Source: a virus. From it: 41,562 nucleotides of DNA. Position numbers and translations under genes: made by a program. Each line of letters starts with the position of its first letter. Position 1 is the stretch's first letter. Of the stretch, positions 8,471 to 9,856 are shown one piece after another. The notes beneath the pieces were generated by a model. It ran no database searches, had not been told where the DNA came from, and saw only the letters and a program-made list of their open reading frames with translations. The stretch is from IMG/VR virus record IMGVR_UViG_3300035156_000123, positions 1-41,562 of that record; one strand, given 5' to 3'.

Positions 8471-8699
8471 TGTGGGAATGAGAACGCATCGTGACATCGT
8501 AAAAGCGGCCGGGACGTTGTCCCAGACCGCTTTGAGCCGCAAAGTGTCGGTCCATACTGTTCGGTCGTGGATCGCGCGAGACAGCATCCCTGCCGAGCAT
8601 TGGGCGGGCTTCGCGTCCGATAAGAAAGCGTCTCTCCAAGAGCTGGCCGAAGCCGCTGCCGCCTCGCGTGCGCCGGTTGAGCAAGGCCAAGCCGCATGA
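8463..8699 (+). CDS. Cro/YdaS-like small HTH regulator (alternative start at 8478)
   Basis: IVKAAGTLSQTALSRKVSVHTVRSWIARDSIP is a Cro-type HTH. It is the first gene of the rightward operon. Confidence 0.65.
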   Translation: MHHVGMRTHRDIVKAAGTLSQTALSRKVSVHTVRSWIARDSIPAEHWAGFASDKKASLQELAEAAAASRAPVEQGQAA

Positions 8700-9856
8700 C
8701 CCCCACTATCCGCACAGGTGGGGAGGGGGGAGCCTACTACAACGAGATCGATCCATTCGCTGCGGCATGGCTGCGCGAACTCATCGCTGCGGGCCACATC
8801 GCTCCCGGCATCGTAGACGAAAGGGACATCCGCGATGTTCGGCCAAATGAACTTGCTGGATTTAATCAATGCCACTTCTTCGCAGGCATCGGAGTGTGGT
8901 CCTACGCCTTGCGCCGCGCCGGCTGGCCCGACGATCGCCCGATCTGGACCGCAAGCCTCCCCTGCCAGCCGTTCAGCGCAGCCGGCAAAGGCGCGGGCTT
9001 CGCTGACGAGCGACATCTTTGGCCCGTCTTTAACGAATTGCGCCTCGCCTGCCGACCTATCGTTGCAGTTGGCGAGCAGGTTGCGAGCAAAGACGGACTC
9101 GCTTGGCTCGACGTTGTACAATCTGACGTGGAAGCGTCGGGCGATGCCTTCGGGGCGGTCGATCTGTGCGCTGCGGGCTTCGGGGCGCCGCATATCCGGC
9201 AACGATCTTACTGGATGGCCCACGCCCTTGGCCTGCGACAGCAGGGGTTCGGCGGGAGTGGGGAAGCGAGAACTTCCGAACATCGCGATGTTGGTGGGTT
9301 GGGCAACTCCGACAGCAACGGATGGGCGCTGCGGCTCGCTGGAAGCCCGGCCACACGATACCGGCCACCCGTTGACCCAACAGGTAGTGCTTGCGGGTTG
9401 GCCAACGCCGACGACGATGGACAACGGAAATTCGGGCAACGCCTGGGAGGCGCGGCGGGAGCGTGTGAAAGTAAAGCTGGGGAACGGGAACGGGTTTGGG
9501 CTTATCCTGCCGATGGCTGCGCAGTTGGCGGGGTGGCCGACACCCTGCGCGCAAGATGGCCCGAACGGCGGGCCGTCGCAGGGAACGGATCGACTGCCGG
9601 GAGCAGCAGCGCAAGTGACAGTGATCCGCGGCCGACTAACGGCTTCTGGGGAAATGTTGATTGGCTCTACTGCCGCGATCCCGGAGGCCCGCGTTGGAGG
9701 CCCGTTGACGCTGGCACATTCCCTCTGGCTCCAAGCACTCCCGCCCGAGTGGGAGGTCTGCGCGGCTCGGGCAATGCAATCAATGCCGAAGTCGCGACGG
9801 GGTTCATCGAAGCGGTAATTGATCATCTCGCGCATCCTGCGGAATTGGCAGCATGA
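8696..9856 (+). CDS. DNA (cytosine-5) methyltransferase
   Basis: The motifs read are CHFFAGIG (I), LPCQPFSAAG (IV), VGEQV (VI, ENV-like), GAPHIRQR (VIII) and LRGSGNAI (X). The central about 400 nt translate to low-complexity G/R/D-rich sequence in this frame. Confidence 0.85.
   Translation: MTPTIRTGGEGGAYYNEIDPFAAAWLRELIAAGHIAPGIVDERDIRDVRPNELAGFNQCHFFAGIGVWSYALRRAGWPDDRPIWTASLPCQPFSAAGKGAGFADERHLWPVFNELRLACRPIVAVGEQVASKDGLAWLDVVQSDVEASGDAFGAVDLCAAGFGAPHIRQRSYWMAHALGLRQQGFGGSGEARTSEHRDVGGLGNSDSNGWALRLAGSPATRYRPPVDPTGSACGLANADDDGQRKFGQRLGGAAGACESKAGERERVWAYPADGCAVGGVADTLRARWPERRAVAGNGSTAGSSSASDSDPRPTNGFWGNVDWLYCRDPGGPRWRPVDAGTFPLAPSTPARVGGLRGSGNAINAEVATGFIEAVIDHLAHPAELAA
8835..9818 (+). CDS. 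Nested +1-frame ORF with four GW(P/A)TP repeats (candidate overprinted gene; true start unknown, the convincing part starts about 9050)
   Basis: 327 codons are open inside the MTase gene. It reads LTWK..[15 protein letters not shown], then TGWPTP, VGWATP, AGWPTP, AGWPTP (Trp codons at 9216, 9300, 9399, 9534), and ends [16 protein letters not shown]. By hand count its third-position GC is higher than the MTase frame from about 9000 onward. Confidence 0.4.
   Translation: [327 protein letters not shown]

Follow-up and report, generated by a model that had tools for sequence, protein, structure and literature searches.

Known two-chain methyltransferases and the nested locus

The C5 DNA methyltransferase M.EcoHK31I consists of two polypeptides, and its beta chain is encoded inside the alpha gene, in a different frame (PMC2836561, PMC3404938). 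As these papers describe it, alpha has motifs I–VIII as well as X, beta has motif IX, both chains are required for activity, and activity is lost once the beta start codons are silenced by changes that leave the alpha protein unaltered (PMC2836561, also PMC3404938). The original work (Lee, Kam and Shaw 1995, Nucleic Acids Res 23:103) is described in the same two papers. M.AquI (Karreman and de Waard 1990, via PMC3404938) is another C5 methyltransferase that occurs naturally as two consecutive subunits, the break being inside the variable region, one with motifs I–VIII plus a portion of the variable region, the other with the rest and motifs IX–X. Furthermore, in engineered fragments of M.SssI, M.HhaI and M.BspRI, a catalytic part and a part with the variable region and motifs IX–X can fold and work as separate chains (PMC3404938). 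Here, we analysed a window of 41,562 nucleotides (positions 1 to 41,562 of the IMG/VR virus record IMGVR_UViG_3300035156_000123), in which a phage methyltransferase gene contains a second, fully nested open reading frame (ORF), the pair most likely encoding the two chains of one enzyme.

Frame A of this gene, hereafter the alpha ORF, runs from 8696 to 9856 on the plus strand (386 aa), and frame B, the beta ORF, from 8835 to 9818 on the same strand (327 aa). Neither contains an internal stop. Frame B is shifted by +1 relative to frame A, so that position 1 of a B codon is position 2 of an A codon, B2 is A3 and B3 is A1. The beta ORF lies wholly within the alpha ORF, with a same-strand overlap of about 980 nt, in a window whose GC content is 62–64%. 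An earlier note on this DNA had described both ORFs, the frame-A motifs, the tryptophan codons of frame B and its C-terminus, and we found all of them at the coordinates it had reported.

The likeness to M.EcoHK31I is one of architecture, not of sequence comparison: in both cases, the methyltransferase ORF entirely encloses a second ORF in another frame, which is conserved in the present family. The nested ORF described here is, however, far longer (85% of alpha) and has a conserved block that is overprinted on motifs IV–VIII. Moreover, M.EcoHK31I, as far as the cited papers describe it, is the methyltransferase of a type II restriction-modification system (YGGCCR), whereas the present gene is a phage gene without an adjacent nuclease. 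The consecutive subunits of M.AquI, as presented in PMC3404938, also differ from a long nested overlap, and the artificial fragments were cut from single-chain enzymes, without overlapping coding.

Both frames are kept open in homologous loci

We gathered about 230 homologous loci from isolate genomes, metagenome-assembled genomes and phage genomes, including complete ones, with a GC content of 0.48–0.69. The best 80 loci per scan were taken. For the first sample, 160 loci were fetched with frame-A peptide patterns only and ranked on full-length A, and 156 of them had motifs I and IV; the second sample comprised 79 loci selected by their alpha N-domain only. A set of 153 unique loci was used for the shuffles, the codon alignment and the start-site and antisense counts.

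All 156 loci show a stop-free run of 257–465 codons in the +1 frame, against 8–32 stops in the +2 frame. In the 79 loci of the second sample, the median open length after motif IV is 264 codons for A, 262 for B and 14 for the third frame, and the stops of A and B are at most 35 codons apart in 72 of them. The Vibrio (GC 0.48), cyanobacterial, Escherichia coli and Pseudomonas phages that we inspected likewise have both frames open. Frame B remains open at GC 0.48–0.52 (L001, L168) and, in loci for which gene prediction had picked B (L001, GC 0.52; L002), that DNA is fully open in frame A too. Frame B stays open in all the close and distant homologues examined.

We used synonymous-codon shuffles within each locus as a null model. 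Over A codons 48–175, frame B contains 0.08 stops per locus (none in 142 of the 153 loci) against 1.37 after shuffling, with a zero-stop probability of 0.22. In the middle region of the gene (9221..9631, plus strand), frame A has no stop in any of the 153 loci against 2.13 after shuffling (zero-stop probability 0.13). As controls, the +2 frame over A codons 48–175 has 4.83 stops observed and 4.65 shuffled (zero-stop probability 0.005), and the third frame in the middle region 4.78 observed and 4.80 shuffled (0.014). These stop deficits indicate that selection keeps both frames open, including A through its meaningless spacer. The possibility, raised in the earlier note, that one set of motifs was a coincidence fails on the same count: 142 loci out of 153 without a +1 stop, for a probability of 0.22 per locus, is far beyond chance.

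An antisense ORF of 474 aa (8468..9892, minus strand) also spans the whole methyltransferase gene. We rejected it as a third gene: its frame is stop-free in only 7 of the 153 loci and its stop count drops with rising GC (r = -0.59), as for a GC-driven shadow, and it serves as a negative control.

Selection acts on both frames in two blocks

We then took the conserved four-fold A codons of the codon alignment and measured the mean entropy of their third positions. It is 1.78 bits for A codons 1–46, which do not overlap B, and 1.70 bits for A codons 47–91 over B aa 1–45 (8835..8968, plus strand), where there is no beta-specific constraint. Compared with these values outside the conserved blocks, synonymous variation is suppressed in two dual-coded blocks of the plus strand: 0.72 bits in block 1 (8969..9220), where A aa 92–175 with motifs IV–VIII lie over B aa 46–129, and 0.33 bits in block 2 (9632..9766), where A aa 313–357 lie over B aa 267–311. 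In A codons 358–374 over B aa 312–327 (the beta tail, to 9818), the entropy is 1.45 bits, alpha synonymous sites vary again, and only one of the 16 columns of the beta tail is conserved.

On the beta side, block 1 contains a helix and a beta-hairpin, with LYNLTWK at 9114–9134; on the alpha side, the consensus of block 2 is PTNGFW..DWLYCRD..RWRPVD..FPLA..ARVGGL. Near-fixed alpha codons of block 1 include P92 (CCT, 143/153), P121 (CCT, 153/153), L140 (CTT, 135/135) and A160 (GCG, 147/147), and fixed codons of block 2 include V337 (GTT, 151/151) and A345 (GCT, 132/132). Third positions of beta are also constrained, with 0.84 bits in block 1 and 0.64 bits in block 2. The residual variation in the blocks is mainly found at sites that are synonymous in both frames (R335 CGG/AGG, L344 CTG/TTG).

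In the middle region, selection at the amino-acid level acts on beta only, alpha being a low-complexity spacer that is kept open. The earlier note had seen this low complexity in frame A between about 9230 and 9630, and the spacer indeed proved unconserved and unalignable among homologues. The third positions of the beta W-x-T-P repeats are free (1.6–1.9 bits, 397 instances), and opposite them frame A reads (L/V/M)(A/G)(D/N/H/Y)(A/T/S/P), the exact wobble of B. Over the four beta repeats of the window, it reads MAHAL, LGNSD, LANAD and VADTL. Because frame-A residues follow the beta wobble, the LADA/LGNAD repeats of database methyltransferases are shadows of W-P-T-P; the ELADA/LGNAD-like repeats that the earlier note mentioned in such proteins are real, as confirmed across the 397 instances.

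Purifying selection is reciprocal on the same nucleotides in the two blocks and acts on beta alone in the middle. Reciprocal constraint of this kind marks two proteins made from the same bases, and a single frameshifted polypeptide cannot explain it. The suspicion that frame B is not an ordinary GC shadow is upheld, B being open in 156 of 156 loci with synonymous constraint in A. The third-position GC content over 9000–9818 is also higher in B (0.71) than in A (0.61), within the range of an earlier hand estimate.

The alpha chain is a partial C5 methyltransferase

Frame A encodes the true catalytic chain of a C5 DNA methyltransferase, but only in part. It carries, on the plus strand, FFAGIG (motif I, 8876–8893), PCQPFS (motif IV, 8960–8977), GEQV (9071–9082), APHIRQR (9185–9205) and GSGNAI (motif X, 9764–9781), the latter forming with the C-terminal helix the region 9764..9856. 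The PF00145 profile matches frame A with 26.2 bits (cut-off 22), with aa 84–177 aligned to profile positions 65–162 of 324 only, and TIGR00675 gives 22.3 bits, under its cut-off of 100.65. The match to phrog_363 has an E-value of 5e-75. The frame-A family profile aligns with residues 71–177 of M.HhaI (E 3.5e-13) and places the catalytic motifs IV, VI and VIII in order (PCQPFS/PCQAFS, GEQV/MENV, HIRQR/QKRER). FFAGIG and GSGNAI are invariant or nearly so in the family and are covered by no profile alignment; FFAGIG lies only 22 aa ahead of PCQ, which is unusually close.

The AlphaFold2 (AF2) model of alpha has a predicted local distance difference test (pLDDT) score of about 90 for aa 10–178 and 357–385, with C-terminal helices at 352–359 and 364–379 (pLDDT 86–92). 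Foldseek searches with this model retrieved M.HhaI (E 1.5e-7) as well as M.HaeIII and DNMT structures. Among prophage C5 methyltransferases of solved structure, the sequence and fold searches placed nearest PDB 3g7u (E. coli CP-933R) and 3lx6 (Shigella flexneri). No folded, conserved target-recognition region was found in alpha between motifs VIII and IX: aa 176–312 are unalignable, with pLDDT <50, and this middle spacer (about 135 aa) ranges from 23 to 187 codons among homologues.

In the window, alpha has a 12-aa N-terminal extension, MTPTIRTGGEGG (8696–8734), compared with most homologues, which start with MTAYYNE. This extension contains the runs CCCCC at 8700 and GGGGGG at 8725.

The predicted beta chain, its modules and its proposed internal start

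Beta belongs to a large family. Among the candidates scored, 4310 were beta homologues, thousands of them with 40–59% identity over the whole length, and an exhaustive HMMER scan with beta retrieved 10,386 cluster representatives with a limit of E ≤ 1e-3, of which 7,717 also passed E ≤ 1e-10. Beta matches phrog_1008 and phrog_31772, and the matching PHROG families are named "DNA methyltransferase". The alignment reveals three conserved parts: an N-side block with the consensus SLASRLQAKT..LGSTLY.LTWK.R.TPSG..I.ALRAS.RRTS, a variable number of GWPTP.A.D modules and a C-terminal element.

In the window, four G-W-(P/A)-T-P-x-x-x-D modules are read in frame B on the plus strand (9213–9227, 9297–9311, 9396–9410 and 9531–9545), with TGG codons at 9216, 9300, 9399 and 9534 giving GWPTP, GWATP, GWPTP and GWPTP, respectively. 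Among beta homologues, the number of modules is 0–5, up to about 11. The C-terminal element (9705–9752, plus strand), motif-IX-like by its pattern only, reads L-x-P-x7-G-x-P-x-x-W and is located just upstream of the alpha GNAI; its cyanophage version is LAPGFVAWLMGFPPEW. In M.EcoHK31I, as the cited papers present it, the motif IX element of beta likewise lies just upstream of motif X of alpha. In the AF2 model of beta, a helix (72–90) and two strands (95–103 and 109–117) form a helix and beta-hairpin with pLDDT 76–90, and aa 1–45 are disordered. The extreme N-terminus of M.EcoHK31I beta is described as mattering little, with internal Met starts possible, which parallels the unconstrained aa 1–45 here.

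Beta has what appears to be its own conserved start codon inside frame A. A purine-rich sequence resembling a Shine–Dalgarno (SD) site, GAAAGGGA (8819–8826, plus strand), is followed after an 8-nt spacer by ATG at 8835–8837, where translation would begin. This ATG is formed by the alpha codons D47–V48 (GAT|G). It occurs at the D47/V48 junction in 115 of the 153 loci, and an ATG is found upstream of the conserved beta part in 150. Alpha D47 is encoded by GAT in 126 loci and by GAC in 22, whereas other Asp codons of the gene favour GAC. In addition, alpha R43–S44 is often AGG-AGC, creating AGGAG, and an SD-like 4-mer is present at most 20 nt upstream in 101 of the 153 loci.

Fusions, frame-swapped alleles and co-occurrence

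When we searched with an alpha-beta-alpha sequence composed artificially, we retrieved natural single-ORF proteins that join the alpha N-part in frame to the middle and C-terminal part of beta (P0243, P0246, P0248, P0264 of Morganella, P0265 of Enterobacter, P0303 of Klebsiella and others). P0261 carries alpha-beta-alpha in one protein. At the DNA level, the fusion alleles have one or two indels in the spacer, and the +1 offset between the two coding series is kept on each side of every indel. These natural fusions, which place beta after the alpha N-part, argue that the alpha and beta products act together and are functionally linked.

Frame-swapped alleles were located in L165 (1501–2516, a Morganella allele), L166 (1501–2689) and L167 (1501–2564). 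In the single-indel alleles, the alpha N-part is joined to the beta C-part and the beta N-part is truncated, while the alpha C-part with motif X is in the third frame, still open for 155–187 codons. Two indels in L166 yield an alpha-beta-alpha ORF. L165 and L167 are closer to the M.AquI layout than the window is. The fusion proteins P0264 and P0246 recur on 5–6 contigs. Phase-variable homopolymer tracts were considered as the cause of the frame swaps and rejected: the middle region of the gene has none in the window, and a run of at least 6 is present in only 29 of the 153 loci.

In GenBank phage records, the alpha N-domain was detected in 243 and the middle and C-part of beta in 180, with an identical genus distribution. 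The earlier note had wondered about stand-alone genes for WPTP-repeat proteins. Neither such a gene nor a beta without alpha was found in any locus inspected: beta sits on an A-type methyltransferase every time.

A probable two-chain enzyme and its alternatives

We consider it likely that the locus is a nested two-gene C5 DNA methyltransferase, alpha and beta being chains of one enzyme. One mRNA read in frame A would give alpha, with a catalytic domain dependent on S-adenosylmethionine (aa ~13–178), a flexible spacer, a conserved C-terminal segment and the motif X helix. The same mRNA, read from the internal SD-like site and the ATG at 8835 in the +1 frame, would give beta, with a dispensable N-terminus, the conserved helix and beta-hairpin, the four W-P-T-P-x-x-x-D modules and the motif-IX-like C-terminal element. 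Since alpha has no conserved variable region of its own, we propose that beta supplies it: beta would bind alpha and provide the target-recognition part, and the active enzyme would be an alpha/beta heteromer, as experiments showed for M.EcoHK31I. The translation of beta, its binding to alpha and its role in DNA recognition are all predicted from the sequence. The complementation of M.SssI, M.HhaI and M.BspRI fragments makes such an enzyme plausible, as well as the varied break points of the natural alleles. The dual-coding pair put forward in the earlier note is supported by the open frame B, the suppressed synonymous sites of A, the homologues and the recurrence of the arrangement.

Several observations weigh against this interpretation. 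The translation of beta is deduced rather than directly evidenced. Pfam and NCBIfam family scans of frame B gave no match, a PDB sequence search with the beta profile gave 0 matches at E ≤ 10, Foldseek of the beta AF2 model against PDB gave nothing below E 0.1 (with a low-confidence model: pLDDT 62.8 and predicted template modelling score 0.30 for beta alone), and hhalign of the beta profile with E. coli Dcm gave a probability of 0.1. The PF00145 match was not extended beyond motifs IV–VIII when the alpha-beta-alpha composite was compared with Pfam and PDB, and natural alpha-beta fusions and distant beta ORFs had no Pfam match at the beta C-terminus. The motif IX label of beta rests on a short pattern, and on these very nucleotides alpha, too, shows the R-x-V-x-P-x7-G-x-P spacing. 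Alpha aa 313–356 (9632–9763) are highly conserved, yet disordered in the AF2 model (pLDDT <50; 120-sequence alignment); they may fold only in complex with beta or DNA. About 9% of the loci have other frame arrangements, so that strict alpha/beta co-linearity is not obligatory. Finally, the loci are related by descent: the per-locus probabilities cannot simply be multiplied, and the entropy and shuffle figures ignore kinship. As a counterweight, the loci cover GC 0.48–0.69 and a protein identity of about 50%, and internal controls are built into the gene.

The main live alternative, which we regard as unlikely, is that beta is real and translated but has a job unrelated to methylation (anti-restriction, regulator or DNA-binding protein), alpha working alone. 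The missing similarity of beta to methyltransferase domains in profile and structure searches fits this view, as do a helix-hairpin block (aa 46–121) without counterpart in canonical C5 methyltransferases and the wide variation in repeat number. However, alpha would then have no evident target-recognition domain between motif VIII and its C-terminal block. Besides, the fusions put the beta repeats and C-terminus right after motif VIII of alpha, i.e. in the canonical place of the variable region and motif IX, beta was never found without alpha, and the nested chain of M.EcoHK31I is described as an obligatory subunit (PMC2836561). Still less probable is programmed frameshifting, from A to +1 near 9215 into B and perhaps -1 back near 9755, to produce one canonical methyltransferase. 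The conserved parts taken in the order A-B-A do follow the element order of canonical C5 methyltransferases, and database proteins have exactly these in-frame junctions (P0261 for A-B-A; P0246 and P0264 for A-B), but these variants have real DNA indels. Frame B, with its own ATG, is open and conserved for about 380 nt upstream of any useful junction, and beta aa 46–129 (about 250 nt upstream of the junction) are under their own selection although a shifted product would never read them. Conversely, the A spacer is kept open and alpha aa 313–357 are selected, though the shifted product would skip them. A -1 slippery heptamer is present at the B-to-A junction in only 1 of the 153 loci (+1 signals are poorly defined and were not exhaustively searched), no zero-frame stop or rare-codon pause is evident, both frames being open end to end, and the middle region of the gene has no homopolymer run of at least 5 in the window. 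The recoding envisaged in the earlier note is neither needed nor supported.

Two further explanations are already contradicted by the data. That frame B is a non-functional shadow of GC richness and frame-A constraints is highly improbable. The window is GC-rich, the long antisense ORF also spans the gene, and several beta residues (e.g. G31) are fixed simply through fixed alpha Trp codons; but B is open even in the loci of GC 0.48–0.52, the antisense frame is stop-free in only 7 of the 153 loci, alpha synonymous sites are fixed exactly at the conserved beta stretches, and in the middle alpha residues drift while beta residues are fixed. It is hardly conceivable that an assembly or sequencing artefact, or a pseudogene, with two compensating indels split a single-frame gene. 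Frame-shifted alleles exist in public data (L165, L166, L167), but the same two co-terminal ORFs are found in about 230 independent loci, including complete genomes, the pattern recurs in hundreds of independent assemblies, and both frames are intact end to end in the window.

Under the two-chain interpretation, the division of labour would differ from that of M.EcoHK31I, for which the cited papers assign the variable region to alpha, beta giving only motif IX. Here, the variable region of alpha is an unselected spacer, and beta holds the only conserved sequence at that place, the W-P-T-P modules. Compared with M.EcoHK31I, what is new is the longer overlap, the assignment of the whole variable region to the nested chain, the very wide distribution in phages and the inconsistent annotation.

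The multispecific C5 methyltransferases of the Bacillus phages SPR, phi3T and rho11s have a variable region with several tandem recognition modules, which differ in number and identity between phages. Unlike the locus of the window, these enzymes are single-chain and single-frame, and we know of no sequence similarity between their modules and the W-P-T-P modules. The nested genes of phiX174 are a further case of long same-strand overprinting. In XLalphas/ALEX, two proteins from overlapping frames of one transcript bind each other (PMC1186735). Both cases concern other proteins and organisms, whereas the present pair is conserved across phages of many bacterial phyla. In the literature on overlapping or nested genes, prophages, cytosine methyltransferases and motif IX, we found no description of this phage family, only the M.EcoHK31I and M.AquI papers, and surveys of frame transitions do not mention it.

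Genomic context

The window comes from a temperate phage or prophage. The methyltransferase gene is located directly downstream of a cI/Cro-like switch: a cI-like repressor gene (7944–8690, minus strand) adjoins it, and a Cro-like ORF (8463–8699, plus strand) precedes it. Terminase, portal and scaffold genes are also present in the window, further along. No restriction endonuclease was found beside the methyltransferase gene, whose neighbours are the cI-like repressor, the Cro-like regulator and small phage ORFs.

ATGA start/stop overlaps at 8696, 9853 and 10089 connect the Cro-like ORF to the methyltransferase gene, then to a 79-aa ORF and a 142-aa ORF, which suggests translational coupling along an early operon. 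As listed, with a TTG start at 8690, the cI-like repressor ORF shares about 230 nt with the divergent Cro-like ORF. Since its helix-turn-helix match begins only at aa 75, its real start is probably well downstream of the listed TTG. The largest gene of the window is a 1256-aa ORF (15481–19251), without a PHROG match at E ≤ 1e-3.

Annotation and significance

The earlier note had supposed that the hidden frame may be widespread and unannotated. Frame B has more than 10,000 homologous cluster representatives; public records are inconsistent, and some of them annotate B. The records PV754127 (L163), OR360541 (L164), BK059895 (L169) and CP158822 (L001) illustrate this inconsistency. Depending on the record, both ORFs are called 'DNA methyltransferase', only B is given, as a 'DNA repair protein' together with a spurious antisense coding sequence, only the C-terminal half of B is given, as a 'methyltransferase', or only B is given, unnamed. 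Several Burkholderia phage records use 'putative metabolic enzyme'.

In thousands of phage and prophage entries named "DNA cytosine methyltransferase", the middle is low-complexity sequence without meaning and a second conserved gene is left out. Other records call the second gene alone, under names such as "hypothetical", "DNA repair protein" and "putative metabolic enzyme". Should recognition come from beta, any prediction of specificity or construct for expression that builds on alpha alone will fail. The modular repeats would then be a handle for split, targetable methyltransferases, a use to which M.EcoHK31I has already been put (PMC2836561). In addition, long dual coding on one strand under reciprocal purifying selection is rarely seen in such a statistically clean form, and its regions selected in a single frame provide internal controls, which makes it suited to testing methods and ideas on overprinting.

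Both readings are conserved in thousands of phages. More speculatively, and with odds that we judge to be clearly against it, the locus would be the type specimen of a two-chain phage cytosine methyltransferase family that is very large (more than 7,700 clusters at 50% identity) and in essence undescribed, in which the recognition chain is overprinted on 85% of the catalytic chain, the W-P-T-P modules are interchangeable specificity units and spacer indels rewire the attachment of modules to chains. If this were true, the W-P-T-P modules would set and perhaps also multiply the target specificity, the spacer indels seen in alleles L165–L167 would be a new route to the diversification of methyltransferase specificity, and few overlapping gene pairs of bacteria or their viruses would be as long or as well supported.

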